Assembly (NCBI GenBank): GCA_016187385.1
Contig: JACPJU010000001.1
Location: 8,348 to 72,347 of the forward strand
DNA: 64,000 nucleotides
Reading direction: 5' to 3'
DNA from: Candidatus Aenigmatarchaeota archaeon
GTDB taxonomy: Archaea; Aenigmatarchaeota; Aenigmatarchaeia; CG10238-14; SCSR01
Position numbers and translations under genes: made by a program. This document shows, piece after piece, positions 3,402-47,273 of this stretch. Below the pieces are notes generated by a model. The model was not told the DNA's origin and searched no databases. It saw only the letters and a program-made list of their open reading frames with translations. Position 1 is the first letter of the stretch. Each line of letters starts with the position of its first letter.

Positions 3402-3833
3402 ATGAAATTTCCAAAAACTTCTGGTTTCAAAAGAAGACAAGAATTAGTCAGACAAATTATCGAAGCTTATAAACAAAAAGCAATAAAATTGGCTTATCAG
3501 CTTGGTGATTTAAGAGACATCAGGAGTGATTATAGAGAATCAGTAGCAAATTATAGACCAACTGAAATTTTAAGTAATCCGCCATTGCAAGACGTGTTTG
3601 GGCATTATGATCAAAAAACTCAACAGCGTATAGGCACCGGACTTATACAAGCTATCTTATTCGCCCCAGACGAGGCTATGGCAGAAGCTGAATGGTACGA
3701 AAAACTTGTTGATTCTCCTCGATTATATTTTGTAACTGGATCTGATTTACAAGAAGTTCTTGAAAGATTACCCCTTACAAAAAAACCAAAATCTTTTACA
3801 TATTTGAGAAACCAGCGTCCGCCGACCGTATAA
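3402..3833 (+). CDS. Hypothetical protein
   Basis: 143-aa ORF with no recognised motif. Confidence 0.4.
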   Translation: MKFPKTSGFKRRQELVRQIIEAYKQKAIKLAYQLGDLRDIRSDYRESVANYRPTEILSNPPLQDVFGHYDQKTQQRIGTGLIQAILFAPDEAMAEAEWYEKLVDSPRLYFVTGSDLQEVLERLPLTKKPKSFTYLRNQRPPTV

Positions 3834-3910
3834 ATTAACATCTAAATCGAAACAAATTCTACCATGTCTAAAACCTTATCTTTTTAAAACGCGAAATATT
3901 AGTAGATATA

Positions 3911-4465
3911 ATGTTCTGGAGCAAGAAGAAGTGCAGGAACTGCGATAATGAAGTCAAATCCGACTGGATGTACTGCTCTAACTGCGGGATAGACTTGACA
4001 GAAAAGAAGCATATCCATAGCGAGATTGACAAGGATTTCCGAAGGATCGACAAATTGTTCGACGGCAGGGAGCCAAAGTTCATTTTAAAGCCATCGCTAA
4101 AGTCCAAAGGCATCAGCATAACAATAACTTCTGATAATATGACTCCGCCAAAGATTGAGGTTATGTCATCTGGCGAGTTTAAAAGAAAGTCACAGATTGA
4201 GGAGCCAAAGCCTGTAAGAATACCAAAGGTTACAGAAGAGCCTCACACGAAGATTGAGAGAAAGCATGACAAGCAGATCATTACTGTTGATATGCCTGAT
4301 GTGAAGAGCCTTGATGATATAGAACTCAAACAGCTTCACCAGAGCATTGAGATAAAGGCATTCGCAGGGGACAAGGCATACTTTAAGCTGATTCCTATAC
4401 CAATGAACGCAACCGTCAACAATGAATTCAAGGACGGCGTGCTAAAGATTGAAGTTGTGAAATGA
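3911..4465 (+). CDS. Zinc-ribbon protein with C-terminal Hsp20/alpha-crystallin-like region
   Basis: N-terminus CRNCDNEV...YCSNCG (two CxxC pairs, zinc ribbon). C-terminus ends ...EFKDGVLKIEVVK, which resembles the terminal beta-strand motif of small heat-shock proteins. Confidence 0.35.
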   Translation: MFWSKKKCRNCDNEVKSDWMYCSNCGIDLTEKKHIHSEIDKDFRRIDKLFDGREPKFILKPSLKSKGISITITSDNMTPPKIEVMSSGEFKRKSQIEEPKPVRIPKVTEEPHTKIERKHDKQIITVDMPDVKSLDDIELKQLHQSIEIKAFAGDKAYFKLIPIPMNATVNNEFKDGVLKIEVVK

Positions 4466-4509
4466 TTATCTCATCTGACTGATATGTCTTTTTGGTTATC
4501 GAAAAGGTT

Positions 4510-4525
4510 TGTCGCATATGCGACA
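4510..4525. promoter_or_regulatory. Perfect 16-bp palindrome TGTCGCATATGCGACA
   Basis: Read directly. Confidence 0.5.
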
Positions 4526-4538
4526 TGTACAACCTCCC

Positions 4539-4556
4539 ATGTAAAACGTTTTACAT
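4539..4556. promoter_or_regulatory. Perfect 18-bp palindrome ATGTAAAACGTTTTACAT
   Basis: Read directly. Confidence 0.45.
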
Positions 4557-4584
4557 ATTTGGAAAATTGTCTGACGCCATGCAT

Positions 4585-4600
4585 TGTCCCATATGGGACA
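4585..4600. promoter_or_regulatory. Perfect 16-bp palindrome TGTCCCATATGGGACA
   Basis: Read directly. Confidence 0.5.
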
Positions 4601-4631
4601 TTATTCTTCGCGATACAATCACAACATTAAT

Positions 4632-4647
4632 TGTCACACGTGTGACA
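4632..4647. promoter_or_regulatory. Perfect 16-bp palindrome TGTCACACGTGTGACA (second copy)
   Basis: Read directly. Identical to 1508-1523. Confidence 0.5.
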
Positions 4648-4661
4648 CACAAAGAACGCCA

Positions 4662-5357
4662 TCAAAAAATCAACTTTATAAAAACCGCGAAAATTAAAAT
4701 TGTCCCCAAATCTGCTATTGATGTCATAACCGGCAAAACAAGGTTGTTGGGATCCTCCTTCCGTGAATAGACATAGTATACAGCAAAAGCCGCGATTACA
4801 ATGATCAGGCTGACCATCGACAACGTTGTGAACAATGAAATCTGCAGCACTTTTAAAACGGAAGCCAAAGTCAATGAGAATCCATTCAGATAAGCTATCA
4901 AGGAAGAAATCGCGCTTATGTAAAATGCGGAAAAAATAGCCACAAGTGCTATTGTTCTTATCAGTTTTCTGATGTCTTCATCCATCCACCAATCGCGCTT
5001 CGTGCCTTTCGTGAAAACCAGTGTAGACAGTCTAGAAACCATAATCATGCTGTAATCCCCAATCATGTCATTCAATGCGGGCAACAGAATAATCAACGGT
5101 AGAAAAGCTATGAACGATGATTGAATTTTCTGCAGGCTTATCCCGCTTATGGTGCTGAAAAGAAACGCCAGTATCAATGCCAAGAGACTCTCTCTAAGTA
5201 TGACAGACACTATGTTTGACTTGGGTCCGTATTCTTTCATGTAGAAAATGGTTCTGTGCGAAATTTTGTGTTTGCGGTGAATCTTATGAATGAGAGGGTT
5301 ATGCTCATGTCTTTTCAATCTTGCCAATTGTTTTCTGAGTTTTGATGATAATTTCAT
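4662..5357 (-). CDS. MgtE-like divalent-cation transporter membrane-domain protein
   Basis: Multi-TM protein with DPNNLVLPVMTSIADLG, matching the D-P-(D/N)-N-x(3)-P-x(2)-T-x(3)-D-x-x-G signature of the MgtE/SLC41 integral-membrane domain. Start overlaps the stop of the upstream paralog (ATGA). Confidence 0.55.
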   Translation of the reverse strand: MKLSSKLRKQLARLKRHEHNPLIHKIHRKHKISHRTIFYMKEYGPKSNIVSVILRESLLALILAFLFSTISGISLQKIQSSFIAFLPLIILLPALNDMIGDYSMIMVSRLSTLVFTKGTKRDWWMDEDIRKLIRTIALVAIFSAFYISAISSLIAYLNGFSLTLASVLKVLQISLFTTLSMVSLIIVIAAFAVYYVYSRKEDPNNLVLPVMTSIADLGTILIFAVFIKLIF

Positions 5358-5896
5358 ATAACCGCCACAGCCGCCAAAAGTGAAAGAATCGTCACAATAT
5401 CACCGGATGTTGTAACATAAGGACCCATTATGTTGTTGGGATCAAAACCTCGCTTGAACAACCAAAATGTCAGAAAAACTGTCATAGGAATTTCTATGAT
5501 GTTTGACAGGACAGCAGCGAATATGGAAATCAATATTATCTTTGGGTAGTCAACGCCAGAAAAAACATAGTTCGCCAAATAGGCAACCGACCCTAGAAGA
5601 AGACTGGTTATTAACGTCAGCAGAATAGCTACTTTGATGTTTTCTACTGTAATCCTGTTTATTGGTTTTCTGGATTTTATCACGCCCAAATGCAACCCTG
5701 CGCTTAACCTCGCCGCCAGACTCCCGCTCACATTGCCCCTCATATCCAAAAGACCCGGAAGCAATATGAAAAATCCTGGTATCAGATAAATCTTGTCAAG
5801 AGCTACCGCAAGAAAATATCCGGCTATCAAGCCGCCTGTGATCGAAATTAATTGGGTGGAGAAAATTTCTTTGAAGTCCTTTGCGAAAATCTGCAT
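5354..5896 (-). CDS. MgtE-like divalent-cation transporter membrane-domain protein (tandem paralog)
   Basis: Contains GFDPNNIMGPYVTTSGDIVT, the same MgtE TM-domain signature. Four or five hydrophobic segments. Confidence 0.55.
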   Translation of the reverse strand: MQIFAKDFKEIFSTQLISITGGLIAGYFLAVALDKIYLIPGFFILLPGLLDMRGNVSGSLAARLSAGLHLGVIKSRKPINRITVENIKVAILLTLITSLLLGSVAYLANYVFSGVDYPKIILISIFAAVLSNIIEIPMTVFLTFWLFKRGFDPNNIMGPYVTTSGDIVTILSLLAAVAVI

Positions 5897-5911
5897 AATA
5901 TTTATTGCGTT

Positions 5912-6937
5912 TTATCTGTTAAAATCAATTCCGTCTACAGACACCATTGTACCTTCCATACCAAACTTAACGCCTAGAATCTTTTCTGTCACAGCAATAT
6001 TTGTTCTGCAGTGTTCTGTAATTTCTTCGACTTTAATTTCTGATTTTCCTTTTGCCAATGCGATAAATGGAATTATTTGATCAGCCATCCATTTGTCCAA
6101 AGCCGCATTGGATTCCATGGATTTAATCAATTCGAATGAAGCTTCTTCACCAACTTTCTGGGCGGGCTTGCCTATTTCTCCAATATTATCAGAACCTATG
6201 ACAGAATTTCCACAATCAGCCCACAGTGTTATTGAAGTTCCAGGCGAGGCTGTATCGACAACTCTCTTTTCTATCTGTGCATCTGGAAAGCTGTTTTCAA
6301 CTAATGCCTTCTTTGCGCCATTCGCCTGTCGTTTGGCTATGTCTTCCGGCAGCGACCCGACAACCGAGATTCCTTTTATGTGATTGATTTTTCCTCTTTC
6401 TGTCAGCTTGACCGGATTCAATTTTTTCACAGGTTTGAAAATTATTTTTACTTCTCCTTGACCTTTCGAATAAAATCCTTCCCTTATAACTTCCATGCGA
6501 GGCAATGGTAAACCCAATCTGTTCAATATCGGGAATGTTACATGTTCGAGATAATGAATGTTCGGAGCACCCAATCCAGCAGTGCCACCTGTGATGTCTA
6601 AAGTTATTTCATTGTCTGCAAAAATCAGCAATGGTGATAGCGTCTGAAGCAACAGCCCGATAGAACCGGCTGTTCCTATATCTATCTTTCTGCTTCTGAT
6701 GTTGTGTGATTTTGGTATGAATTCTATTTCTGTAGAATGCAACTCCAGTCCTCTGACTTGAGCATTTGTAAACTCTCCCGCTATCTTCACTCCTGTAAGA
6801 TGCTGCGCCTGCAATCCTGGTTTGGGTCTGTTCTTTCTTATGTTGATTATTTTTATTGGTTTGAGTGTTAATGCAGACAATGCGATAGAAGTTCTCAATA
6901 CTTGACCGTAACCTATGGAGCCGTCGATTGTTATCAT
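5912..6937 (-). CDS. rtcA: RNA 3'-terminal phosphate cyclase
   Basis: 341 aa. N-terminus MITIDGSIGYGQVLRTSIALSALTLKPIKIINIRKNRPKPGL closely matches the RtcA consensus (IDGS.GEGGGQ.LR...AL... I.NIRA.R..PGL). Conserved HLTG. Confidence 0.85.
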   Translation of the reverse strand: MITIDGSIGYGQVLRTSIALSALTLKPIKIINIRKNRPKPGLQAQHLTGVKIAGEFTNAQVRGLELHSTEIEFIPKSHNIRSRKIDIGTAGSIGLLLQTLSPLLIFADNEITLDITGGTAGLGAPNIHYLEHVTFPILNRLGLPLPRMEVIREGFYSKGQGEVKIIFKPVKKLNPVKLTERGKINHIKGISVVGSLPEDIAKRQANGAKKALVENSFPDAQIEKRVVDTASPGTSITLWADCGNSVIGSDNIGEIGKPAQKVGEEASFELIKSMESNAALDKWMADQIIPFIALAKGKSEIKVEEITEHCRTNIAVTEKILGVKFGMEGTMVSVDGIDFNR

Positions 6938-7840: not shown

Positions 7841-8479
7841 TCAGCCTATAACCCGTGATAACAAGGCAATGTTCAAGATTCCCAGGAAGCTGAACAGGAA
7901 TGAGAAGAACAGAACTTTCTTCGCATCATAGCGAGCAATAGCCCACAACACGGACACGAAAACTTCTGTGGGCAACGGCAGTGAAACAAGTATGCCGGAA
8001 ATGGCGGGTATCGCCGCTTGCAGGAACTTTGATCTGTATACTCTCTGGTTGAGCCTGTGCTCAAATCTTTCAACATCGAATCCCATCTCGCGGGAAAAGA
8101 TGAACTTTACCTCTTCCAAGACATCCTCTTTGATGAATCTATATATGAGAAAATTGCTTATCATGGCGCCTAATCCCGCTATCAATGCTATTAGAACCGG
8201 ATTGAAGCTCTTGGAAATAACGAATATTGCGACTGCTGATGCAGCTGTCAACGCGCCGTAAGAGAATAAAAATCCAAGTAGGAGAGCACTCAAATATCCA
8301 AATTGAGCTAGGAATTCTGTTACCGCATATATCAGACCTGAATGCGCGAGGAAATATGCAAATACCAGTCCCAAAACAAGAATAATGATATTTTGATGCA
8401 TGAAATGGAACTTTATCAGGCTGCCCATGAAAGTATTGACTTTTCTAACCCGCTGGCTATCCTTGTAGGAATATTTCAT
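7841..8479 (-). CDS. Integral membrane protein (DedA/TVP38-like topology; family uncertain)
   Basis: 212 aa, multiple TM helices, Gly/Ala-rich re-entrant-like segments. Confidence 0.35.
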   Translation of the reverse strand: MKYSYKDSQRVRKVNTFMGSLIKFHFMHQNIIILVLGLVFAYFLAHSGLIYAVTEFLAQFGYLSALLLGFLFSYGALTAASAVAIFVISKSFNPVLIALIAGLGAMISNFLIYRFIKEDVLEEVKFIFSREMGFDVERFEHRLNQRVYRSKFLQAAIPAISGILVSLPLPTEVFVSVLWAIARYDAKKVLFFSFLFSFLGILNIALLSRVIG

Positions 8480-10430: not shown

Positions 10431-10646
10431 ATGGAAAAGTTAATTTATTCAGCCTATGAACTTGCAGATATAAAGAAGAGGCTTTTGGGAAAAGAACCTA
10501 TACCACTATGGGATGTTGTCTTCGGATTCGGTGTGGAACAGAGAGAAAATCGGACAATCAGGGAAATTCTGGACAAGTGTGGACAAAACATTGCCATAGG
10601 TCCGTTAAATGGCAAATCCGGCATTGTAATTTATTCCCTGTTATAG
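10431..10646 (+). CDS. Hypothetical small protein
   Basis: 71-aa ORF. Confidence 0.3.
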   Translation: MEKLIYSAYELADIKKRLLGKEPIPLWDVVFGFGVEQRENRTIREILDKCGQNIAIGPLNGKSGIVIYSLL

Positions 10647-11903
10647 ATTGAATATCCTGTTGTTAGCCAATGGTGCTGTAGCGTCGAATCCTTGTTCATT
10701 CAACTCTCGAGCGAAATCTTCCGTGTGCTCGCCGTGGACACAGAATATCTTCTCAGGATTCACATGTTTTATGAACTCGAACAGATCGTCCCTGCTGGCA
10801 TGACTGGAGAAATTGAGTTTTTTGACATCCATGTGAACCTCAAGGTCTATGTCTTTGTTGATGTACCTGCCAGTTTCGAGTAATGTTTTCCCGGGCGTGC
10901 CTTCAACCTGAAATCCGCTCATAGTCAGGCTGCAGTTTTTCTTGTCGAACAATTTCTGGATATACCACACAATAGGTCCGCCTTGGAGCATGCCTCCTGT
11001 TGACAGAATAACGCCAGGCTGCTTGATTATTTTCTTTCTCATTTTATGGTCTGCGACATACTGGGCTTTTTCAAGCGCCTTGTCCAGGCTTTTAGGATCT
11101 TTCAGCAGGTTCTTGTGCTGGTTTATAATCGTGATTGCCTTTTTTGCCATGCCGTCCACATACAGAGGATAGTCTATCCCGTTACTATCCAATACAAGTA
11201 ATAGTTCATCAATTCTTCCGACGGCAAAACCTGAAATAAGCGCAACACCGTCCCTGGACAGGGTATCGCGAACTGTTCTGACCAATTCCTTTTCCTGCAA
11301 TTTTCTGTCAGGATGCTCACGGTCTGAATACGTGCTTTCCGTCACCATCACATCAACTTCAGGCAGTTTCAAATCAGCACCTTTAACCAATTTTGTGTCA
11401 GTGGTTTTGTAGTCTCCTGTGTAAAGAATCTTTTTACCGCCTGCGTCAAGATAAGTCAGAGCACTGCCCGGTATATGGCCTGCATCGAATAACGTGGCTT
11501 TGGTGTTGTGGACTTTGAATGGTGATCTGAAATTAACTGGAACGAAACTGTCCAATGTTGCTTCCACGTCATTTCTTGAAAATGGCAGTTCCACGCCCTC
11601 CTCGCGGCTGATCTTTATCGAATCCAGCCACAGCAATCTTGACAATGGTTTTGTCACACCTTGTGAGAATATAGGACAATTATTTTTTTTGGTGCTGAAA
11701 ATTGGAATAGCGCCGACATGATCCAAATGGGCATGCGAGATTATTATGGCGTCCACCTTTCCCTGCACTGGTATGGGAAACAATGGCGGGATTTCCTGGA
11801 CTTTTGTCCCATAATCCATCAAAATCTTTTCGCCACCTGTGTCAACCAAGACAGAAGAACAACCTATCGACGCCATTGCGCCATGGAAAGAAACTTGAAC
11901 CAT
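10641..11903 (-). CDS. Metallo-beta-lactamase / beta-CASP ribonuclease (aCPSF2/RNase J-like)
   Basis: ISHAHLDHVGAIP (HxHxDH motif). Downstream motifs D..H.PGSA, HASRDDL (beta-CASP motif B-like) and CVHGEH (motif C). 420 aa, no KH domains. Confidence 0.8.
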   Translation of the reverse strand: MVQVSFHGAMASIGCSSVLVDTGGEKILMDYGTKVQEIPPLFPIPVQGKVDAIIISHAHLDHVGAIPIFSTKKNNCPIFSQGVTKPLSRLLWLDSIKISREEGVELPFSRNDVEATLDSFVPVNFRSPFKVHNTKATLFDAGHIPGSALTYLDAGGKKILYTGDYKTTDTKLVKGADLKLPEVDVMVTESTYSDREHPDRKLQEKELVRTVRDTLSRDGVALISGFAVGRIDELLLVLDSNGIDYPLYVDGMAKKAITIINQHKNLLKDPKSLDKALEKAQYVADHKMRKKIIKQPGVILSTGGMLQGGPIVWYIQKLFDKKNCSLTMSGFQVEGTPGKTLLETGRYINKDIDLEVHMDVKKLNFSSHASRDDLFEFIKHVNPEKIFCVHGEHTEDFARELNEQGFDATAPLANNRIFNL

Positions 11904-11988: not shown

Positions 11989-12225
11989 ATGCCCAAAGCC
12001 ATGATAAACATATCAGATAGAGCAAATAGGGTGCTGAATATTATAAAAGCGAGGTATGGTTTGAAAGACAAGTCTCAAGCTATAAACAGAATGACTGAAG
12101 AATTTGGGCAGATACTTCTGGAACCACAGTTAAGACCCGATTATGTTAAAAGGTTAAGGAAAATCGAAAGTGAAGGTACAATTTCTGAAGAGGAGTTTGA
12201 GAAGAAATTTAAAGTGAAGCTATAA
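11989..12225 (+). CDS. Putative antitoxin partner of the RelE-like toxin
   Basis: 78-aa charged protein. Its stop overlaps the start of the toxin gene (ATGA at 12222-12225), the usual type II TA arrangement. Confidence 0.5.
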   Translation: MPKAMINISDRANRVLNIIKARYGLKDKSQAINRMTEEFGQILLEPQLRPDYVKRLRKIESEGTISEEEFEKKFKVKL

Positions 12226-12491
12226 TGTTTTCTGCTGAATTCTCCAAAGAGCTGACAAGAAAACTAGAGAAACTTCAGAAAAGAAACAAAGTCTTGTTCG
12301 ATGTTATAATAGATAAGATAAGGGGGATTAAAGAAAATCCAGAACACTACAAACCATTACGACACGACATGAAAGGTCTCAGACGGGTTCATATCATGAA
12401 ATCTTTTGTGCTTATATTCAGAATAGATTATGCTAGTAATAAAATAATTTTTGAAGATTTTGATCATCATGATGAGATATATAGAAGATAA
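12225..12491 (+). CDS. RelE/ParE-family toxin
   Basis: 88 aa. ...HYKPLRHDMKGLRRVHIMKSFVLIFRIDYASNKIIFEDFDHHDEIY matches the RelE/YoeB consensus (KPL...L.G..R.HI...FVL.YRI....I.FL.F.HHD.IY). Confidence 0.7.
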   Translation: MFSAEFSKELTRKLEKLQKRNKVLFDVIIDKIRGIKENPEHYKPLRHDMKGLRRVHIMKSFVLIFRIDYASNKIIFEDFDHHDEIYRR

Positions 12492-12598
12492 GCTGATGCG
12501 ATAGATAGCTTTTCCTGTCCGCATGATTTATAAACATATTATGTCATAATAAACTGAAGTGAGATGATGAGAAGCCAATACACGGTGAAAAGTGGCCA

Positions 12599-12889
12599 AT
12601 GGGTGATGGATCGCCAATTCGTAGCGATCTTTCTAGCCTGAAGAAAGTCATACTCAAATCCCTTACTAGAAATCAGATTTTGCTTCTGAATGAAATAGAG
12701 AGTAATTCTACAAAAACTATTACAGCTCTAGTCAGCACAATATCAAAGAAATCCAAGATACCTATATCCACTCTGAAATTAAATGCACGTCTCTTGAAGG
12801 ACTTGGAACTCATTAACTACTCAGTTTCTGAACCTGTTGAATTAAGCGATTCTGGTAGGCTTGTTTTAACTTTGTTGGAGAGTGGATGA
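12599..12889 (+). CDS. Winged helix-turn-helix DNA-binding protein
   Basis: 96 aa. Predicted recognition-helix segment SKKSKIPISTLKLNARLLKDLELI fits an ArsR/MarR-like wHTH. Overlaps the start of the next gene. Confidence 0.45.
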   Translation: MGDGSPIRSDLSSLKKVILKSLTRNQILLLNEIESNSTKTITALVSTISKKSKIPISTLKLNARLLKDLELINYSVSEPVELSDSGRLVLTLLESG

Positions 12890-13958
12890 CATGAGTATAC
12901 AAAATTTATCCGAATTATCTGTAGAAGAAACTGCGGATAGTCTCAGACGATTGAAAACGCTTAATGCGGAAAGATACGATTTAAAACTAGAACCGTTATC
13001 TCATCCACTTTTAGACGGGACATTTTTGAAAGAAAGAGACGCAGTTATTCCATACGGACTTGACGGATTCAATAAACAAAATGCCGTTGTATTCACAGGG
13101 CAATGTCTGCTTAAACATGATGAAGATCCGGAATGTCCTGTTACGTTAGAAGACATGTTGGAGATATTAAAACTTAGGGACTTTCTCCAAAAGACACAGC
13201 TTCCTGCGGTATGCATGATTCCAGATAGTATATACCTTGATAAGAAATTCTTAGATCCGTGGTTTGGTGGTCATACTGATTTGAAAGAAATCCGCGAAAG
13301 AGTGGAAAAATTCGCTGATCTCTACACAAATGTCAGAAGAAAATTAACACCATCTGTTAAGCATATAAGGACAAGTGAAATTGAAGAAAAATTAAATGGC
13401 GCTAGAAATAGACTAAGTTTACCTCTATTGATACCAAAAATAAGGCAGGTTTATGGCGGTAGGTTTCTAAAAAACAAAGAGCACACACATCCTCTAAGCC
13501 AAACCATACTTGAATATGGTATGGTATCATTAATTTTACGGGATAGAGCTGGTTACACTAACAGAGAACATATTATAGTCTTCTCAGAACCAGATGAAAT
13601 ATGCAGTGTCAAGGCTACTGAATTAATTCTTGCAGAAAGAGGAGATAGGCTAAGGGCAAATAATGTTAAATCAGTAGGCCTAATAGGTCAGATACCTTTA
13701 CCTCCTTTGTATTACCCACCAGATCTGGAAAAGAACCGTATGTATGGAGCACCTAGGAAATCTAGAATTCATGTGAATGAACCAGATGAAAATATTAGAG
13801 GGAAACTTTTAGAAAATCCCTCTTTCGCATTACTTGCAGTCTACATGTCGCCCGCTACTGATCAGGATGAACTTGATTACTTGAGAGTTTATGGGACGAA
13901 GGGAGATGTTGCAGACATTTTAATAGGCCAAATTAGGGACTTTAGGAGATATTTGTAG
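12882..13958 (+). CDS. Hypothetical protein (358 aa), operonic with wHTH, Nif3 and SET genes
   Basis: Long ORF with consistent codon usage and no family recognised. Start overlaps the wHTH gene and its end abuts the Nif3 gene. Confidence 0.5.
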   Translation: MDDMSIQNLSELSVEETADSLRRLKTLNAERYDLKLEPLSHPLLDGTFLKERDAVIPYGLDGFNKQNAVVFTGQCLLKHDEDPECPVTLEDMLEILKLRDFLQKTQLPAVCMIPDSIYLDKKFLDPWFGGHTDLKEIRERVEKFADLYTNVRRKLTPSVKHIRTSEIEEKLNGARNRLSLPLLIPKIRQVYGGRFLKNKEHTHPLSQTILEYGMVSLILRDRAGYTNREHIIVFSEPDEICSVKATELILAERGDRLRANNVKSVGLIGQIPLPPLYYPPDLEKNRMYGAPRKSRIHVNEPDENIRGKLLENPSFALLAVYMSPATDQDELDYLRVYGTKGDVADILIGQIRDFRRYL

Positions 13959-13966
13959 GTGACTCT

Positions 13967-14719
13967 ATGCAGCGAGATAAAATCATTGAAAACTTGGAAC
14001 AGCTAGCACCACCGATACTTACCGATATGGACAATATAGGATTGATTGTCGATGGTAAAAATGAGATTGAAGTTATTGGTGTTACATTAGATTTCTCTAT
14101 GAACGCGATAAAGAAGGCGATAGAAAAAAAATGCGATTTGTTAATAGTGCATCACGGGCCAGAATTTAAAGAAGATAAAGAAAATGAATACATTAAGAAA
14201 AAACTTCAACTCGCCAAAGAAAATGATCTTTCAGTATTTAGAATGCATTTGAATCTGGATTTTGTTAAAAATGGACTTATGGATAGCTTTTGCAAGCTTA
14301 TTGGTCTGAAAGGGAGACCGGAAATTGTAGTTTACAAGAATACTAAGATAAAAGGCGGTGTATACTTGGCTAAAGATAACCTTACGCTAGATGATTTGAT
14401 TGAAGGGATTAAACATCTAAACCCAAAGTCGATAAGAATAGCGGGTGTCAAAAAAGGTGTTTATAGAAAAATTGCAGTAACTACTGGTGCTGGGTTTATA
14501 CCAGAATTTCTTGACCAGTTAAAACCCGATGTTTTCATTTCTGGAGAATTAACACAAGAAGCAATAAGAACAGCTGAAGATTTAGGAATTACTTTAATCG
14601 AAGTCACACATTACTTGGAGAGCAAAGCATTGGAAATATTTTCTAATAAGCTGAAGGGGATTTTGCCATTAAAGATTGAGTTCATAGATTTAGGTGATAG
14701 TTTGGAAGTGGTGAAATGA
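13967..14719 (+). CDS. Nif3 (YqfO/YbgI) family dinuclear-metal-centre protein
   Basis: 250 aa. CDLLIVHHGP matches the Nif3 DLLI(T/V)HHP motif. C-terminal GEL(T/S)..E / H..E metal-ligand region (ISGELTQE...VTHYLES). Confidence 0.7.
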   Translation: MQRDKIIENLEQLAPPILTDMDNIGLIVDGKNEIEVIGVTLDFSMNAIKKAIEKKCDLLIVHHGPEFKEDKENEYIKKKLQLAKENDLSVFRMHLNLDFVKNGLMDSFCKLIGLKGRPEIVVYKNTKIKGGVYLAKDNLTLDDLIEGIKHLNPKSIRIAGVKKGVYRKIAVTTGAGFIPEFLDQLKPDVFISGELTQEAIRTAEDLGITLIEVTHYLESKALEIFSNKLKGILPLKIEFIDLGDSLEVVK

Positions 14720-15144
14720 AAATTAAGATAGTTAATGGCGTTGATAATTTAGGTAAACGGCTTATTGCTATTGAAAAAGTAGCAAAAAATGAAGTTATAT
14801 GTAAACTAAAAGGAAAACTTCTAGATAAACCAACTTGGCAAACTTTACAAGTAGGTCCAAATAAACATTTAAAAAATCGCATTATTGATTATCTTAATCA
14901 CTCATGTAATCCAAACTCTTTCGTCGACACAGAAAAATTAGTCTTGGTAGCTAATAGAACTATTAAACAGCTTGATGACATAACTATAAATTATCTTTTG
15001 ACTGAATGCGAATTAGCCAGTCCATTCAAATGTATGTGCGGTAGTAGAAAATGTTTCAAGGAAATAAAAGGTTACAAATTTTTGAATTCCAATAAGAGAC
15101 TGAACATACCTTATTTATTAAAATTAAAAAGTAAACTACAATAG
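14716..15144 (+). CDS. SET-domain protein lysine methyltransferase
   Basis: 142 aa. NHSCNPN is the SET AdoMet-binding signature (NHSCxPN). ITINY corresponds to the ELTFDY motif. Post-SET Cys cluster CMCGSRKC. Start overlaps the Nif3 stop. Confidence 0.8.
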   Translation: MKIKIVNGVDNLGKRLIAIEKVAKNEVICKLKGKLLDKPTWQTLQVGPNKHLKNRIIDYLNHSCNPNSFVDTEKLVLVANRTIKQLDDITINYLLTECELASPFKCMCGSRKCFKEIKGYKFLNSNKRLNIPYLLKLKSKLQ

Positions 15145-15152
15145 AGGTTAAG

Positions 15153-16244
15153 ATGGACCTAGAAACACGATTAGAGCTTGTAAAGGGTGTCGGAGAGGAA
15201 ATAATAACCGAAGATGAACTAATAGAACTTTTAGGAACTAAATTACATCCGATTGCTTATGATGGTTTCGAGCCTAGTGGGCTAGCACATCTTCCGTTTG
15301 GTGTTTTCCGTCCTTTGTTACTGAAAGACTTGTCCAAAGCAGGCGTTCGTTTCAAGCTATGGCTAGCGGATTCTTTCGCATGGATAAACAACAAGATGGG
15401 CGGGGACACAAACAAAATAAGAAAAGTGGGCGAATACTTTATCGAGGTTTGGAAGGCTGCAGGCGTTAAAGAAGGGAGAGACGTCCAGTTTCTTTGGGCT
15501 TCCGATGCATTCTCCGACAAGGAATACTGGAAGAAAGTTATCCTGATTGCAAAGAACACTACAGTGAGCAGAGCCAACAGGGCATTGACAATAATGGGAA
15601 GGAAAGAAGGCGAAATGCAGGAAGTAGCGCAGTATTTCTACCCCATGATGCAGGCTGCCGATATCTTTTATCTGGATGCAGACATATGCCAGCTGGGACT
15701 GGACCAGAGGAGAGCCAACATGCTTGCACGCGACATTGCCGAAAAAAAGAAATGGAAAAAACCAGTTGTCGTCTCTCATCATATGCTCATGGGACTGGAA
15801 GGTATAAAACAACCGGAAGGATATGAAGAAAACAAACAGATGGACATAGAGATTTCCTCAAAGATGAGCAAGTCCAAGCCGCATACCGCAATATTCGTAC
15901 ACGATTCGAAGGAGGAAATAAAGAGGAAGATAAATTCCGCATTCTGTCCCGAAAAAACTGTAGAAGGAAATCCTATATTAGATTATTCAAAACATCTGGT
16001 GTTCAGAAGATTCAAGTCGATGAAGATAGAGCGTGATAAGAAATTCGGCGGTGACTTAGAATTTGATGATTATCAGGAATTGGAGAAAATGTTCAAAGAT
16101 GGAAAACTGCATCCGATGGATTTGAAGAATTCTGTCGCGGATTATCTGGACCAGATGATAGCACCAATTAGAGAACATTTTGAGAAGAACAGGAAAGCTA
16201 AAGAGCTTTATGATTTTGTAAGAAAGCAGGAAATTACACGATAA
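15153..16244 (+). CDS. tyrS: Tyrosyl-tRNA synthetase (archaeal type)
   Basis: 363 aa. AYDGFEPSGLAHL (HIGH-region equivalent), KMSKS motif (SSKMSKSKP). C-terminus KFGGDLEFDDYQELEKMFKDGKLHPMDLKNSVADYL is near-identical in pattern to the archaeal TyrRS C-terminus. Confidence 0.9.
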   Translation: MDLETRLELVKGVGEEIITEDELIELLGTKLHPIAYDGFEPSGLAHLPFGVFRPLLLKDLSKAGVRFKLWLADSFAWINNKMGGDTNKIRKVGEYFIEVWKAAGVKEGRDVQFLWASDAFSDKEYWKKVILIAKNTTVSRANRALTIMGRKEGEMQEVAQYFYPMMQAADIFYLDADICQLGLDQRRANMLARDIAEKKKWKKPVVVSHHMLMGLEGIKQPEGYEENKQMDIEISSKMSKSKPHTAIFVHDSKEEIKRKINSAFCPEKTVEGNPILDYSKHLVFRRFKSMKIERDKKFGGDLEFDDYQELEKMFKDGKLHPMDLKNSVADYLDQMIAPIREHFEKNRKAKELYDFVRKQEITR

Positions 16245-16274: not shown

Positions 16275-16604
16275 ATGGCTGTAGAGTCAGTATACATTTC
16301 GCTAGAAGGCTTGGCAGAGGCTATGAGAGGCAAAATGTCTATTCATGATTATTTTGTAGATGTAGTCGATGCCAGAAGAAATGGCTTGGGGTCTATCCAA
16401 GTCTATAAAGGAAATGAACCTCCTGTAATGGAAGTAAGATATAGATTCTCTTTAAGGGAAGAGCCGCTTTCTCATATAAGACATCCACACGTTTCGTCTT
16501 CTTCTGAATTTGATATTTGGTTTCCAGATAAGTTGGAAGAAGATAAGAAGCAATTGTTGAGAAGCGCATACAACGACGCATTAAAATCATATGAAAGCCG
16601 GTAA
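16275..16604 (+). CDS. Hypothetical protein
   Basis: 109-aa ORF. Confidence 0.35.
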   Translation: MAVESVYISLEGLAEAMRGKMSIHDYFVDVVDARRNGLGSIQVYKGNEPPVMEVRYRFSLREEPLSHIRHPHVSSSSEFDIWFPDKLEEDKKQLLRSAYNDALKSYESR

Positions 16605-16895
16605 TTATTTCGTAAATTTGTGAAAATATTTCTTGTCTACGCATCCATCAACAACTTTAATACCGTCTTTTCTAAGCATCTTGGTTTTTGTTTCCAAACC
16701 ACCTTCCCCGCTGTATCCGCACAATTTACCTGATGACGATACGACTTTGTAGCATGGGTAAACAATAGGGTAAGGATTACTTGACATGATTCTACCTATA
16801 GCCCTAGGTGATGTCTTACATAGTCTGGCTAGAGTTCCATAGGTCGCAACCTTGCCTTTTGGTATTTTCTTCAACAGCAGAAGCGCTTTGTGCAT
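16605..16895 (-). CDS. Methylated-DNA-protein-cysteine methyltransferase (Ogt/MGMT) C-terminal DNA-binding domain protein, standalone
   Basis: 96 aa. IPKGKVATYGTLA and PCYKVV match IP.G...TYG.lA and the PCHRV(V/I) active-site motif, with the Cys retained. No N-terminal domain. Confidence 0.7.
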   Translation of the reverse strand: MHKALLLLKKIPKGKVATYGTLARLCKTSPRAIGRIMSSNPYPIVYPCYKVVSSSGKLCGYSGEGGLETKTKMLRKDGIKVVDGCVDKKYFHKFTK

Positions 16896-36595: not shown

Positions 36596-36717
36596 GCTGG
36601 AGTTGGACAACCTGGTCGTCCACTGGTCTTGAGTCTGACAGCTGGTTATTGTGACAAGTTATCAGAATGATAACCAGCACCCGCAAGGGTATGTGGGTTC
36701 AAATCCCACCTCCAGCG
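36596..36717 (+). tRNA. tRNA-Ser (anticodon UGA) with a 38-nt intron at the canonical 37/38 position
   Basis: Folded by hand. Acceptor GCTGGAG/CTCCAGC (7 bp). U8. D-stem GGAC/GTCC with GG in the loop. Anticodon stem CTGGT/ACCAG. Loop CU-UGA-G. Intron about 36634-36671 carries GCTGGTT, complementary to the 3' anticodon-stem/exon, which fits a bulge-helix-bulge splice structure. Long variable arm CACCCGCAAGGGTAT (type II). T-arm GTGGG-TTCAAAT-CCCAC. Discriminator G. CCA not encoded. Confidence 0.7.
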
Positions 36718-43683: not shown

Positions 43684-43974
43684 TTATCCTGTTGCAACTA
43701 ATTGAAATTTCTCTTTTAGTTTTTCGTTACTTGCTAGCTTTCTTTCGAACATCTCCTCTATATCCTTGCCGGTAGGAGCATATAGTATATTGCCATCACT
43801 ATCTATGACCATTTCGCCTATAGGGAAGACAGCAACTTTCGACATATGAAATACAGGAACTATCCATATACCAACTTTACTATCAAAAATAGGCTCGCCT
43901 GGACCTATCAAGTTTCCTATATTTTCGATTAAATACCTATCTGCCTGTTCATAAGCTTCTTCTTTTGTTATCAT
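43684..43974 (-). CDS. Hypothetical protein (cargo of the gatE-3'-end insertion)
   Basis: 96-aa ORF whose start overlaps the stop of the upstream peptidase gene (4-nt overlap). Confidence 0.4.
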   Translation of the reverse strand: MITKEEAYEQADRYLIENIGNLIGPGEPIFDSKVGIWIVPVFHMSKVAVFPIGEMVIDSDGNILYAPTGKDIEEMFERKLASNEKLKEKFQLVATG

Positions 43975-44450
43975 TTAATTTCACTCCCCAAAATGAAAAT
44001 TAATCTAAATTTGCTATTCCATGCTCTGGTAAATGTTTCCAAGTCAACCTCTTTATTTTCTCCTCCAAACTCTTGATCAGGATCGTTTATAACTATGTTT
44101 TTATTTGTAATATCCTTTACTATGATGTAATGACCATGTTCGGATTCTGGCAAATTATACAAAACACTTGGTTTAACTAAGACTATAGGATAAAATCCTT
44201 TATTGATATATCTTTGCAATTCTTCAATTGTGGAGCCGAAATGGAAACTATATTCAACATTGTAATTTTCACAAATAGTTTTCATCATGTTAGGTGATAC
44301 ACCTTTTCGAGGACTAAAATTTATTATTTCAGCCAACCGATATTCATTTATTTTTATATCCATATATTCTAGAATCATTCTTAGACACGCTAAAGAGCAT
44401 GTAAAGGGAGTTTGCTGTTTATAATAAGGAAACTTTTCCACAAAAATCAA
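43971..44450 (-). CDS. Papain-like Cys peptidase, C39-like domain protein
   Basis: 159 aa. QQTPFTCSLACLRMIL (Q...C nucleophile region typical of C39 / C39-like_2) and ...HGHYIIV (catalytic His). Confidence 0.5.
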   Translation of the reverse strand: MIFVEKFPYYKQQTPFTCSLACLRMILEYMDIKINEYRLAEIINFSPRKGVSPNMMKTICENYNVEYSFHFGSTIEELQRYINKGFYPIVLVKPSVLYNLPESEHGHYIIVKDITNKNIVINDPDQEFGGENKEVDLETFTRAWNSKFRLIFILGSEIK

Positions 44451-44454
44451 TAAT

Positions 44455-45912
44455 TTACTTCTTCACCATACCTTTGACAACCTTCATGACATCCTGGGCG
44501 TCTATCCTTCCGCGAACCTTGCTCATGACAATGCCGTAAACCTTCTCGAAAGGCATGTTAGCGGATTTGTCCAGAACCTCTTTTGTGATGTCCTTAACCT
44601 CACCGGCAGTCGCAGGTTTCAGATTTAATTCCTTCAACGCCTCTTCAACGCCATCCTGCGGATAAGTCGCAAGATACTTCACTATCTGTGGTATAGCTTC
44701 CTTAACAAATTTCTTCTTGTCCAGAGCATCGAAAAGTTCCATAAATCTGTTCTCGGGTATCCTTTCAATCTCGACCTTCTCTCTTCTCTGCAGGTCTTTC
44801 AATATTGAAACAAAAGTATTAGCGACAATCGTGGGATCGACCTTCGTCTTGTCGACAATTTCCTCGAACAGATCCAGATATTCTGAATTCAGAATTTCCG
44901 TAGCCAAGCCTTCAGGCAGTTTCATCTTTACCTTGAACCTTTCCACTTTCCTTGTCCACGGCTCTGGCAGGTCTCTTCTTATCTTGTCCGTATATTCATT
45001 GGAGATTGATATCGGGAGCAAATCAGTTTCAGGATACATCCTTTCGGCGCCAGGCAATGGTCTCAGGAATTTTGTTGTCCCGTCCGGATTGAATGCGCGC
45101 GTTTCTTCCTTCACCTTTTCAGACAACTGCCTTCTGACTTCCAGTTCGATAACCTTCGACAATATTCCAAGTTCTTGTATGCCTTTGATTTCAATCCTCG
45201 GACCGTTCTTGATGCTTACGTTCATGTCCTGCCTTATGGAGCCTATGCCGTGCTTTGTCTTTCCTGTCGACCTTGTCATCACGCCGATGAGATAAGCTAT
45301 CTCCTGTATCTGTGCTGGCGTGTAACCTTCCAGTACACCAGTTCCAATTTCAACGAGAGGTATTCCCAATCGATTGAGACGATAAGTGACATTTCCGTTT
45401 TCATCGCCGACAATTGCAGCAGCATCCTCTTCCACGCTGACCTGCGCTATCGGAATCTTCTTTCCTTTGTAGACAACATGACCGTTCAATCCGATGATTG
45501 CAGTCCTCTGGAATCCTGACGTGTTGCTGCCATCGATAACAACTTTTCTCATTATCTGGATTTCATTCGGAATTTCGCAATTCAACAGCAAAGAGATTTG
45601 CAACGCAAGATCAAATGCTTCTGGATTTATTTTGTGTGGTGGCTCTTCGTCTAATTCGACAAGGCATGACTCATTATTGAAAACTTGGTAAATGAACGCC
45701 CTATCCCTCAGGTATTCGAATTCTGCTGCCGCGTCAATCCCGCCCATTTCGCTTGCGACTGGATGAAGCTTGCGGCTCACAGTGTTTGTGGGTGTTTTCT
45801 CTTTCATTGATGTCGAACAATTACAGAACAATTTGTGTTGTGTATCTAGCTGCACATGAAGTTCCAATCCGATCTTCAGTCTCAAGTTTTTGTAATTAAG
45901 AGCCTTTTCCAT
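44455..45912 (-). CDS. gatE: Glutamyl-tRNA(Gln) amidotransferase subunit E
   Basis: LRLKIGLELHVQLDTQHKLFCNC (GatB/E N-terminal signature) and C-terminal GatB/YqeY-like helical domain. Paired with the asparaginase-like GatD, hence GatE rather than GatB. Start set to the internal Met MEKALNYKNL so that it abuts gatD. The annotated ORF extends to 46008. Confidence 0.8.
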   Translation of the reverse strand: MEKALNYKNLRLKIGLELHVQLDTQHKLFCNCSTSMKEKTPTNTVSRKLHPVASEMGGIDAAAEFEYLRDRAFIYQVFNNESCLVELDEEPPHKINPEAFDLALQISLLLNCEIPNEIQIMRKVVIDGSNTSGFQRTAIIGLNGHVVYKGKKIPIAQVSVEEDAAAIVGDENGNVTYRLNRLGIPLVEIGTGVLEGYTPAQIQEIAYLIGVMTRSTGKTKHGIGSIRQDMNVSIKNGPRIEIKGIQELGILSKVIELEVRRQLSEKVKEETRAFNPDGTTKFLRPLPGAERMYPETDLLPISISNEYTDKIRRDLPEPWTRKVERFKVKMKLPEGLATEILNSEYLDLFEEIVDKTKVDPTIVANTFVSILKDLQRREKVEIERIPENRFMELFDALDKKKFVKEAIPQIVKYLATYPQDGVEEALKELNLKPATAGEVKDITKEVLDKSANMPFEKVYGIVMSKVRGRIDAQDVMKVVKGMVKK

Positions 45913-47273
45913 TATCCCACCGAAGTTCTTTCGCTTATTTCGCCTGCATAGCTCGTTGTCATCATTTCTTTGATCTTGTTCATGTCTTTCGTGTGGCCAA
46001 GAACCCACATCAATTTCACAAGCGCAGTCTCAGGTGTCCAGTCTGCATAATTGCCAATAACTCCTGTAGCATTCAGCATCCTTCCAGCTTCGTAGATGTT
46101 CAAATCGAGCCTTCCATGGATTGTTTGAGGAGCTATGACAACAGGAATCCCGGAATCTATCAGATTTTTGATGTTCGGTATGATGCTTTGTGCGAATTTG
46201 TCGCCTGTCGGATTTGCGGGCACGTTTCCTATTCCGGTAACAGCAAGAACAACACCGTCAAAACTGCTCAAGGAATTAATGAACTCCGGCTTGATGCCAG
46301 GATATATATAAACCAATGTCACATTCGAATTCATTTGGTCGTCCAACTTTACTTTTTTCTTGTCCTCTCTTTTCTTGTAGTCGGTCCTCATATATTCAAT
46401 CTTTTTATCAGGATATGTTATCTTTGCCAGAGGCCGGACATTTATGCTCCTGAAGGCGTCCCTTCGTGAGGTGTGCAGTTTCCTTACCTTTGTTCCATGG
46501 TGGACATAACAAAAATCATCTGTCGTGTTGCCGTGCATGACCACAACCACTTCAGCTATGTCTGACTCTGCCGCAACCGTGGCTCCGCAGACAAGATTCA
46601 CAAGATTATCACTGCTTCCCCTGTCGCTGCTTCTCTGGGCACCGACCAGAACAACTGGGACTGACAGGTCTCGGAGCATGAAGCTCAGTGCAGCTGCCGT
46701 GAAGTGCATCGTATCTGTACCATGCATGATAACAACGCCCTTGGATCCAGACTCGATTTCTTTCACGACTTCTTTCGCTATTATCTTCCAGTGCTCAGGA
46801 GTCATGTCTTCTGATAAAAGGTCAAACAGCTTCCTGCTTTTGATGTTCGCGACATCTTTCAACTCAGGAAAGGACAAAAGAAGGTCTGCGGGAGAAAATG
46901 CGGGAAAAACAGCTCCTGTTTTGTATTCCACCCTGGATGCAATAGTACCGCCAGCACCTAAAATGGAGATAGTCGGCTTTGAAGGGTCTTTCCTGACAGT
47001 TATTGTCGACGGCTTGAACTTGATCGGCTTGCCTCTCTCCAAGAGCTTGATTTTTACATCCTTGTCGTATTTTACCCCTATGTTGTAGCCGTTTGGGAGC
47101 TTTATCGTCAAGGAGGAAGGATCGCCCAGCCCTATCCTAGGCATAAGTATACCCGCATACTGGATTTTACCATTAATTACAGAAATTTTATCTCCAATCT
47201 TTATCTTTTTGCTTTTCAGCAACGATTCGATTTCTTGAGAATACAAGGTTTTCCCAATATAATTATGTTTCAA
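45912..47273 (-). CDS. gatD: Glutamyl-tRNA(Gln) amidotransferase subunit D (asparaginase-like)
   Basis: ILGAGGTIAS (GGTIA asparaginase motif 1) and HGTDTM (motif 2). N-terminal GatD-specific domain. Confidence 0.85.
   Translation of the reverse strand: MKHNYIGKTLYSQEIESLLKSKKIKIGDKISVINGKIQYAGILMPRIGLGDPSSLTIKLPNGYNIGVKYDKDVKIKLLERGKPIKFKPSTITVRKDPSKPTISILGAGGTIASRVEYKTGAVFPAFSPADLLLSFPELKDVANIKSRKLFDLLSEDMTPEHWKIIAKEVVKEIESGSKGVVIMHGTDTMHFTAAALSFMLRDLSVPVVLVGAQRSSDRGSSDNLVNLVCGATVAAESDIAEVVVVMHGNTTDDFCYVHHGTKVRKLHTSRRDAFRSINVRPLAKITYPDKKIEYMRTDYKKREDKKKVKLDDQMNSNVTLVYIYPGIKPEFINSLSSFDGVVLAVTGIGNVPANPTGDKFAQSIIPNIKNLIDSGIPVVIAPQTIHGRLDLNIYEAGRMLNATGVIGNYADWTPETALVKLMWVLGHTKDMNKIKEMMTTSYAGEISERTSVG

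Follow-up and report, generated by a model that had tools for sequence, protein, structure and literature searches.

A 64,000-nt stretch of DNA from a Candidatus Aenigmatarchaeota archaeon (contig JACPJU010000001.1, forward strand, positions 8,348 to 72,347) is here called the window, and all positions are given in its own numbering unless a lineage is named. It carries a string of co-directional genes that opens with a small winged helix-turn-helix (wHTH) gene, followed by the gene of an orphan protein of 355-358 aa, here called X. Structure prediction and motif comparison indicate that X is derived from the tryptophanyl- and tyrosyl-tRNA synthetases (TrpRS and TyrRS), which are class Ic aminoacyl-tRNA synthetases (aaRS), and that both signature motifs of these enzymes are gone from it. 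The features of the string are the following.

12509-12598, + strand: putative promoter and leader, conserved in a four-lineage alignment
12599-12889, + strand: wHTH gene, 96 aa, TK0271/Tar type, opens the string
12882-13958, + strand: X gene, 358 aa from GTG 12882, probably 355 aa from ATG 12891
13967-14719, + strand: Nif3/DUF34 dinuclear-metal protein, 250 aa (PF01784, TIGR00486)
14716-15144, + strand: minimal SET-domain methyltransferase, 142 aa (PF00856)
15153-16244, + strand: canonical archaeal TyrRS (PF00579; NF006330 equivalog, 393 bits against a cutoff of 220)
16275-16604, + strand: 109-aa open reading frame (ORF), called as such, final co-directional gene

The original prediction for this region, made from the letters alone, comprised four plus-strand genes (wHTH, X, Nif3 and SET). 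All four ORFs lie where it placed them, and profile searches against NCBIfam and Pfam bore out its wHTH, Nif3 and SET labels. The packing is tight and operon-like, as it had proposed: X and Nif3 are separated by an 8-nt gap, Nif3 and SET share a 4-nt ATGA overlap, and wHTH and X overlap by 8 nt. The overlapping or abutting junctions that it described hold as read from GTG 12882. The start of X is, however, more likely ATG 12891, which has GGAGA 10 nt upstream and is also the start of a 355-aa database copy (P0001), and from this ATG the wHTH/X overlap becomes a 1-nt gap. Each gene of the string is preceded by a Shine-Dalgarno (SD)-like GGTGA or GAGGT. The string does not end at SET, where the prediction had closed it, but runs on into the essential TyrRS, 8 nt downstream, and into the 109-aa ORF, 30 nt after TyrRS. 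The latter has no family match in Pfam or NCBIfam and is also found on a contig of the same species (L014). No T-run of six or more occurs on the + strand between 12400 and 16700, and a scan for sigma-70 promoters and intrinsic terminators, which is unsuited to archaea, gave counts at shuffle expectation. The five-gene order from wHTH to TyrRS was found again in two further lineages, L005 and L022, whose X proteins are 64-68% identical to that of the window, so the arrangement is not a product of chance.

A predicted TrpRS/TyrRS fold without HIGH and KMSKS

By sequence, X is an orphan. No match at E ≤ 0.1 was obtained in Pfam or NCBIfam, including PF00579 and the TrpRS and TyrRS equivalogs; against the PDB, phmmer returned nothing and a profile search gave chance avidin matches alone. 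A confident AlphaFold2 model was obtained from a 13-sequence alignment (pLDDT 81.9, pTM 0.86) and compared with the PDB by Foldseek. The best 50 matches were all TrpRS or TyrRS structures, with E values down to 7e-8, alignments of 330-400 columns and TM scores of 0.5-0.6, and both the Rossmann and the C-terminal helical domains were covered. Archaeal and eukaryotic TrpRS (A. pernix 3A04, E 7e-8; human 1R6T) and archaeal TyrRS, including that of M. jannaschii, were the best full-length matches. The model thus has the Rossmann catalytic domain and the helical anticodon-binding domain that together characterize class Ic aaRS. Of the two kinds of search that the original prediction had recommended for the 358-aa protein, profiles therefore gave no match, whereas the predicted structure gave the TrpRS/TyrRS fold.

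The same relationship was examined by profile-profile alignment. With hhalign, 25 X sequences aligned full-length and collinearly with 116 TrpRS sequences of the Aenigmarchaeota type (E 0.011, probability 3.8%); with the TyrRS of the window the probability was 0.25%, and the KMSKS segment alone was picked out, without significance. In the TrpRS alignment, Y-T-G-R-A corresponds to F71-T72-G73-Q74-C75 of X, P-V-H-L-G-H to P86-V87-T88-L89-E90-D91, I-P-D-E-E-K-F to I-P114-D115-S-I-Y118, A-I-D-Q-D to E236-P-D238-E239-I, where the Asp of GxDQ is kept as D238, and K-M-S-S-S to R286-M287-Y288-G/S-A. Collinear between the two are the TG, the P-D downstream of strand 2, the GxDQ Asp, the KMSxS Met and, past the latter, the segment I-x-L-x-E...I-x-x-K. 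As in archaeal TrpRS, a N-terminal extension of about 70 residues precedes the first strand of X; by this extension, its P-D motif and its KMSxS-type loop, X looks more TrpRS-like than TyrRS-like. As the model and the order of the motifs indicate, X descends from TrpRS/TyrRS and keeps the Rossmann domain and the C-terminal helical domain of the anticodon-binding type.

The signature motifs themselves are absent. At the position of HIGH, X has T88-L89-E90-D91, with no His, and T88 and D91 are found in 23-25 of the 25 members of the family alignment, which takes in remote members detectable only at E 1e-6 to 1e-13. At the position of KMSKS, it has RMY(G/S)A, with no Lys; the Met alone is family-wide and the Arg is not universal. 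With these two replacements, both ATP-handling signatures of class I synthetases are gone. X further differs from TrpRS and TyrRS by a 7-residue insertion with conserved Cys residues, which precedes the helix at the HIGH position, by belonging to no sequence family, and by its coexistence with the canonical enzymes.

At least 23 of the 25 members keep G73, C75, T88, D91, P114, D115, Y118, P157, S165, Y191, Y212, E239, M287, E300 and K308. C75 is two residues past the conserved Gly at the end of the first Rossmann strand, and each of the 24 members covering this position has it. By alignment, the polar residues D115, Y118, S165, Y191, Y212 and E239 are at or near motif positions of the aaRS catalytic domain. 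Such family-wide conservation in or beside synthetase active-site motifs points to a constrained binding or catalytic site and not to a decaying copy. Among 13 members at 33-68% identity, 39 columns are invariant and 34 near-invariant, and every full-length copy is an intact ORF. In the main clade, C85, C111 and C241 are also invariant; they lie after strand 1, in strand 2 and after strand 4, respectively, and these three added Cys make a metal site possible. The original prediction had cast the 358-aa protein as the substrate or an adaptor of the SET enzyme, a role at odds with a TrpRS/TyrRS fold whose catalytic-domain motif positions carry conserved polar residues.

The family is very rare. 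It forms 13 clusters in 5.8 billion proteins and, by profile search, 18 clusters in 1.84 billion representatives; it was found in 4 of 185,579 GTDB species representatives and on two JGI metagenome contigs, and no relatives were found in the viral contigs of IMG/VR. The clusters with a taxonomic label are mostly from Aenigmarchaeota. No description of the family was found in the searchable literature, and X is thus, on the modelled fold and the alignments, a previously undescribed sequence-orphan family of TrpRS/TyrRS-derived proteins without the signature motifs.

Canonical synthetases are encoded next to X. In the window, TyrRS and X belong to one string. In L018, whose X is 44% identical, a textbook archaeal TrpRS (FYLYTGRAPSGPVHLGH, AIDQD, KMSSS) lies divergently beside a block of wHTH, X and a C39-like gene, all on one contig of 3.6 kb. 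Immediately downstream of the remote X of L023 (P0026) come TyrRS and, after it, TrpRS, both above their NCBIfam equivalog cutoffs. X is therefore not the charging enzyme of the cell. Its coexistence with TrpRS is established through L018 and L023; on a 786,261-bp contig that bears an identical SET gene, no canonical TrpRS was among the 120 matches listed for a related TrpRS query. In the window as well as in 13 loci, the 1.2 kb around X hold no tRNA gene; just two were found at all, a tRNA-Arg in L011, which lies 1.9 kb downstream of X on the other strand, and one in the window at a distance of 23 kb. Rfam places a tRNA of 122 nt (38.8 bits), presumably intron-containing, at window positions 36596-36717 (+), where the ARAGORN output has none.

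Extra class I-like proteins named TrpRS-A, TrpRS-A-like or ORF1, of unknown function, have been reported in DPANN archaea and Candidate Phyla Radiation (CPR) bacteria from groundwater metagenomes (PMC5370408). Like the TrpRS-A systems, X is a DPANN extra that coexists with a canonical TrpRS. However, TrpRS-A is recognisable as a TrpRS by sequence (PMC5370408) and X is not. ORF1 has HIGH-like and KMSKS-like motifs, is predicted without a Rossmann fold and always occurs with TrpRS-A and tRNA-Trp(A73) (PMC5370408), whereas X has the Rossmann fold, neither motif, and no adjacent TrpRS-A or tRNA gene. Since no tRNA gene lies within 1.2 kb of it, X is distinct from the TrpRS-A/ORF1 systems.

The wHTH-X pair, its promoter and its neighbours

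Gene neighbourhoods were counted over eleven informative non-redundant lineages, the window species included. A small wHTH gene is directly upstream of X in nine of them, mostly overlapping or abutting it, but not in L006 and L017. The X-linked wHTH proteins form two sub-types that are about 20% identical when aligned, and the sub-type of the window is also present in L005, L022, L018 and L023 (TK0271_fam, E 1e-12 to 1e-20). In seven lineages, at most a few genes separate X from a canonical class Ic aaRS gene (TyrRS and/or TrpRS). A C39-like/DUF3335 papain-fold protein, its Cys and His intact, follows X in six, either directly or past an 86-aa ORF, and GNAT-fold proteins flank X in the remote L017. 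The slot between X and TyrRS is variable and holds a C39-like gene, an Asp/Glu racemase, small ORFs, or Nif3-SET.

The Nif3-SET pair comes after X in just three lineages (the window species, L005 and L022), in which X is at least 64% identical. The eight more distant lineages keep X with other genes in place of Nif3-SET: C39-like genes in six and, elsewhere, GNATs or TyrRS-TrpRS directly downstream. The conserved core is the wHTH and X pair, and Nif3 and SET are local, lineage-specific additions. The original prediction had named a gene order conserved nowhere else as the observation that would tell against it; the four-gene order is kept in L005 and L022 and is absent from the other eight of the eleven lineages. 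The dedicated protein-methylation or chromatin module that it built on this order is not supported, since eight more distant lineages keep X without Nif3-SET.

The window wHTH matches NCBIfam NF053753 (TK0271_fam) over 82 of its 96 residues with 71.7 bits (E 4e-20), below the 130-bit cutoff, and is thus a TK0271 homologue but no curated-level member. The 90 nt upstream of its start are 81-88% identical among the window, L005, L022 and L018, whereas the wHTH and X coding DNA of the same four is just 66-72% identical. In this leader, an invariant block (CTTTTyCTrTCCGC) directly precedes a TATA-like TTTATAAA (12527-12534); a TCATAATAA / TGAAGTGAG / TGATG stretch, also invariant, and a SD-like GGTGA ribosome-binding site are present as well. 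Positions 12509-12598 are best read as a conserved promoter/operator and leader, which is consistent with the wHTH protein acting as a local transcription factor. For the four-lineage alignment, RNAalifold gave -6 kcal/mol and no covariation; Rfam gave chance C/D-box matches alone, with E above 1. Elsewhere in the window, the conserved promoter block was found at no more than chance level.

The leader also reads CTGA-N6-7-TGATGA at window positions 12552-12569 and in the aligned L005, L022 and L018 sequences. This arrangement can be likened to a box D'/C' K-loop, the L7Ae-binding motif, with a D'-like box that varies between CTGA, TTGA and GTGA; no function is claimed for it.

Tar, the aromatic amino-acid regulator of Thermococcales, turns on aromatic amino-acid operons in the absence of Trp, Tyr or Phe, and its operator TGGACA-N8-TGTCCA is upstream of the B recognition element (BRE)/TATA; its authors leave open the releasing compound and the sensing of the amino acids (PMC6737238). 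Tar/TK0271 and the window wHTH are both wHTH-only proteins of about 90 aa encoded within their own operon and linked to Trp/Tyr-related genes. The window locus differs in that it belongs to a DPANN archaeon and holds aaRS genes instead of biosynthesis genes. Its invariant leader block contains TGTCCG/TATCCG, which resembles one Tar half-site (TGTCCA), and no second half-site is recognisable in the leader. When checked for defence systems with PADLOC, X, Nif3, SET and the C39-like protein had no match, and the wHTH protein had only weak generic winged-helix matches (E ~1e-3 or worse).

Nif3 matches PF01784 with E 8e-44 (150.6 bits) and TIGR00486 with 134.1 bits against a cutoff of 130.55, and SET matches PF00856 with 38.7 bits against 22.4. 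The NHSCNPN motif and the post-SET Cys cluster on which the SET label had been based are both present, the first at residue 61 and the second as C106-x-C108-x4-C113, together with I-N-Y at 91-93. The best PDB sequence match of SET is BurB (9l4t, E 3.9e-8, residues 5-124), with which it shares NHSC, the Tyr of (F/M/I)-(D/N)-Y and the post-SET Cys cluster; for histone-type SET domains, the match is confined to its C-terminal half (residues 57-115, E ~1e-4). BurB is a SET-domain enzyme that S-methylates free methionine (PMC12542666). As BurB binds Met via main-chain atoms, the sequence signature cannot tell a small-molecule substrate from a lysine substrate, and a chromatin substrate should not be assumed for the window protein. 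An AlphaFold2 model of SET from a 3-sequence alignment reached a pLDDT of 34 and was not used.

The SET family counts 3 clusters in 5.8 billion proteins. In the window, L005 and L022 alike, its gene has the lowest GC of the string (28-31%, the neighbouring genes having 37-42%); the window value is 28%, compared with 42% for the adjacent TyrRS and about 39% overall. This composition suggests either a foreign origin or a strong compositional bias of a protein rich in Lys, Asn and Ile. DUF34 proteins have been proposed to be metal chaperones or insertases and cluster with metal and Fe-S proteins (PMC8469502); Nif3 may supply metal to X (four-Cys site) or to SET (Zn site). Class I methyltransferases are encoded near X after TyrRS-TrpRS in L023 and convergently in L011, from which a methylation step as part of the X pathway is a weak possibility. 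For annotation, SET and Nif3 neighbours are not to be taken as a chromatin module.

Two further features of the window belong to the surroundings of the string.

10641-11903, - strand: beta-CASP ribonuclease gene (Pfam Beta-Casp/RMMBL), divergent; a syntenic anchor outside the unit
43971-44450, - strand: distant C39-like/DUF3335 peptidase homologue (phmmer and Pfam), 30 kb from X and directly downstream of gatD-gatE

The beta-CASP gene is divergently upstream of wHTH-X also in L001, L003, L005, L007 and L023. Its L005 orthologue (3728-6523, - strand) is 931 aa long and contains an intein bearing a LAGLIDADG endonuclease domain. The interval from the beta-CASP gene to the wHTH promoter is occupied in the window by a toxin-antitoxin pair (11989-12491, +) made of a DUF2683-like antitoxin and a RelE/YafQ-type toxin with an ATGA-type junction; L022 has a PIN-domain pair at this place and L007 a NTP_transf_2 nucleotidyltransferase pair, so that the site looks like a hot spot for such modules. 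At the other end of the string, 16605-16895 (-) encodes a 96-aa protein that consists solely of the C-terminal DNA-binding/active-site domain of O6-methylguanine methyltransferases (PF01035, YPCYKV), and a counterpart is at the equivalent syntenic position in L001, L003 and L014.

The C39-like protein of the window is related to the X-linked ones (phmmer E 1e-7 to 3e-10) and matches Pfam Peptidase_C39 (2e-15) and DUF3335 (5e-13). It belongs to a minus-strand string at 43684-47273 with gatD (45912-47273), gatE (44455-46008) and an overlapping 96-aa ORF (43684-43974), which gives this lineage another example of a C39-like gene sharing a string with an aminoacyl-tRNA-handling enzyme. In L003 (7040-7300) and L007 (8044-8301), a conserved ORF of 85-86 aa, of no known family, lies between X and the C39-like gene; its product could be a small substrate or partner protein.

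In two other Aenigmarchaeota genomes, the genes ahead of TrpRS include proteins of unknown family. In L021 (3163-6213), a 376-aa protein of unknown family and Nif3 precede TrpRS, with Nif3 directly upstream of it; homology of the 376-aa protein to X is unsupported, its score being below zero. In L020 (4058-8119), TrpRS comes after a wHTH-like 95-aa ORF, several small ORFs, a protein of 266 aa in which YSANSRSDRIFLDESEQDVATKL resembles the post-KMSKS motif, and an Asp/Glu racemase; a relation of the 266-aa protein to X is unsupported, as only a 30-residue post-KMSKS segment matches.

Possible roles of X

Cyclodipeptide synthases (CDPSs) derive from the catalytic domain of class Ic aaRS and have neither HIGH nor KMSKS (PMC3105412). 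In the CDPS AlbC, G35 superimposes on G34 of TyrRS, and the nucleophile that accepts the aminoacyl group is S37, located two residues further on in the loop between strand and helix; with Cys in its place (S37C), the covalent intermediate is still formed, as a thioester (PMC3105412). X likewise has a class Ic-like Rossmann domain without HIGH and KMSKS, as in AlbC and Rv2275, and its G73-x-C75 would correspond to G35-x-S37 with Cys for Ser, an equivalence drawn via the TrpRS/TyrRS alignment and not by superposition. Concerning the CDPS pocket helix with Y178 and E182, Y212 of X is conserved on the corresponding helix, and its conserved acid is E239, at the Q position of GxDQ. The two families differ in size, since CDPSs are single-domain proteins of about 230-300 aa and X, with 355-358 aa, is about 100 residues longer. 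They also differ in gene partners, which for X are wHTH, C39-like and aaRS genes.

Based on this analogy, we tentatively favor a reading that is plausible but falls short of probable, in which X acts on an aromatic aminoacyl-tRNA via Cys75 in the manner of CDPSs and then transfers or releases the aminoacyl group. Amino-acid activation would have been lost; X would bind Trp- or Tyr-tRNA and take the aminoacyl group onto Cys75 as a thioester, like the CDPS serine at the equivalent position, and this group would then pass to an acceptor or be hydrolysed. The C39-like papain-fold or GNAT-fold neighbours of other lineages would probably take part in this transfer or hydrolysis; fusions of DUF3335 proteins to GNAT domains are frequent (PMC10318531), and aaRS paralogues feeding GNAT-fold peptide ligases are an established theme (PMC2922099). 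The wHTH protein would be a transcription factor at the conserved promoter/leader of the TyrRS-carrying string. Nif3 and SET, inserted between X and TyrRS, would be at most accessory, through metal delivery to the four-Cys site or methylation of the product.

Several observations weigh against such an aminoacyl-transfer role. First, the homology to TrpRS rests on one predicted structure and on motif collinearity, the sequence alignment alone being non-significant at its E of 0.011. Secondly, X has no CDPS match in Pfam and, unlike CDPSs, keeps a C-terminal domain, and no acidic residue is found four positions after Y212, where AlbC has E182. Thirdly, C75 is one of four invariant Cys in the main clade (C75/C85/C111/C241) and could be a metal ligand instead of a nucleophile. 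Lastly, a DPANN genome of about 0.8 Mb is not where peptide or secondary chemistry would be expected, the identical SET gene being on a 786-kb contig; no partner gene is universal (wHTH 9/11, C39-like 6/11), and the adjacency to TyrRS/TrpRS may reflect an origin by tandem duplication alone.

The main rival is possible, if rather doubtful: X would be a pseudo-synthetase that performs no chemistry but senses Trp/Tyr or uncharged tRNA-Trp/Tyr and relays this to the Tar-like, sensor-less wHTH protein controlling the TyrRS operon, which in some lineages includes TrpRS or a peptidase. That HIGH and KMSKS are lost but the pocket residues kept is what one would expect of a pseudo-enzyme that binds a ligand. 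HisZ and the HisRS-like domain of GCN2 are such aaRS-derived proteins, in which catalysis is lost and amino-acid or tRNA binding is kept for regulation; these class II HisRS derivatives act on HisG or on a kinase, with no wHTH and no conserved Cys involved. The genes of wHTH and X overlap or abut in 9/11 lineages, a class Ic aaRS lies within a few genes in 7/11, and L023 has the order wHTH-X-TyrRS-TrpRS. The promoter/leader is more constrained than the coding DNA, and its TGTCCG/TATCCG, similar to a Tar half-site, is just upstream of the TATA-like element. In addition, the wHTH protein is homologous to TK0271/Tar, which is a wHTH-only activator responding to aromatic depletion whose sensing is left open (PMC6737238). 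A sensor would nevertheless leave unexplained the universally conserved Cys at the CDPS nucleophile position. Moreover, X occurs without wHTH in L006 and L017 and without a nearby aaRS gene in L011, L006 and L017, and the Tar-like half-site is single, its motif being no more frequent than by chance at other promoters of the window. If X is a sensor, it would be an archaeal protein-based counterpart of the T-box, HisZ or GCN2-type control of aaRS genes, and might explain how Tar-type regulators sense amino-acid starvation.

It is unlikely that X has no functional link to its neighbours and is a drifting relic of a TyrRS/TrpRS tandem duplication, held in housekeeping synteny with unrelated insertions (C39-like, racemase, Nif3, SET and toxin-antitoxin genes). 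Several Aenigmarchaeota contigs do share the wider synteny (beta-CASP, TyrRS, Ogt-like, SerRS, topoisomerase), different lineages fill the X-TyrRS slot with different genes (C39-like, racemase, Nif3, SET), and the family is very rare. However, the 39 columns invariant in 13 members and the 15 positions kept in remote members indicate purifying selection on specific polar residues, the wHTH-X-C39 block recurs in unrelated neighbourhoods (L011, L018), and no full-length copy is disrupted.

A genuine but unusual second aaRS with non-standard motifs, for instance for a modified or D-aromatic amino acid, is less credible still. X does have the full class Ic architecture including the C-terminal domain, and it retains both the GxDQ Asp and the KMSKS Met; in bacterial TrpRS, TIGN is tolerated where HIGH would stand. 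Extra non-canonical TrpRS genes are known in DPANN archaea (PMC5370408). Yet, in X, both His of HIGH are replaced, one of them by Asp, and its Gly by Glu, while the KMSKS position has no Lys and an Arg that is not universal. Unlike in the TrpRS-A systems, none of 13 loci has a dedicated tRNA gene beside X, and neither PF00579 nor the NCBIfam TrpRS/TyrRS models detect the protein.

The SET-centred protein or chromatin methylation module of the original prediction, with X as substrate or adaptor, is highly improbable: the wHTH-X-Nif3-SET order in three lineages, the ATGA overlap of Nif3 and SET and the different class I methyltransferases near X in L023 and L011 speak for it, but eight other lineages keep X and have neither SET nor Nif3, the active-site region of X is enzyme-like and conserved, and SET is a compositional outlier whose nearest solved relative methylates free methionine (PMC12542666).

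Among aaRS-derived proteins that work outside translation, CDPSs, MshC, GluQRS, HisZ, PoxA and the GCN2 domain each opened new biochemistry or regulation. In the searchable literature, the features brought together by X, namely a whole synthetase architecture, the loss of both ATP signatures and an invariant Cys at the CDPS-nucleophile position, were not found described in combination. X is a sequence orphan recognisable through structure prediction only, it occurs in small-genome DPANN archaea, and it is tied to a Tar-type regulator and to genuine TyrRS/TrpRS genes. If X is an enzyme, it would represent new aminoacyl-tRNA-dependent chemistry; if it is a sensor, it would give a first handle on the regulation of archaeal aaRS genes.

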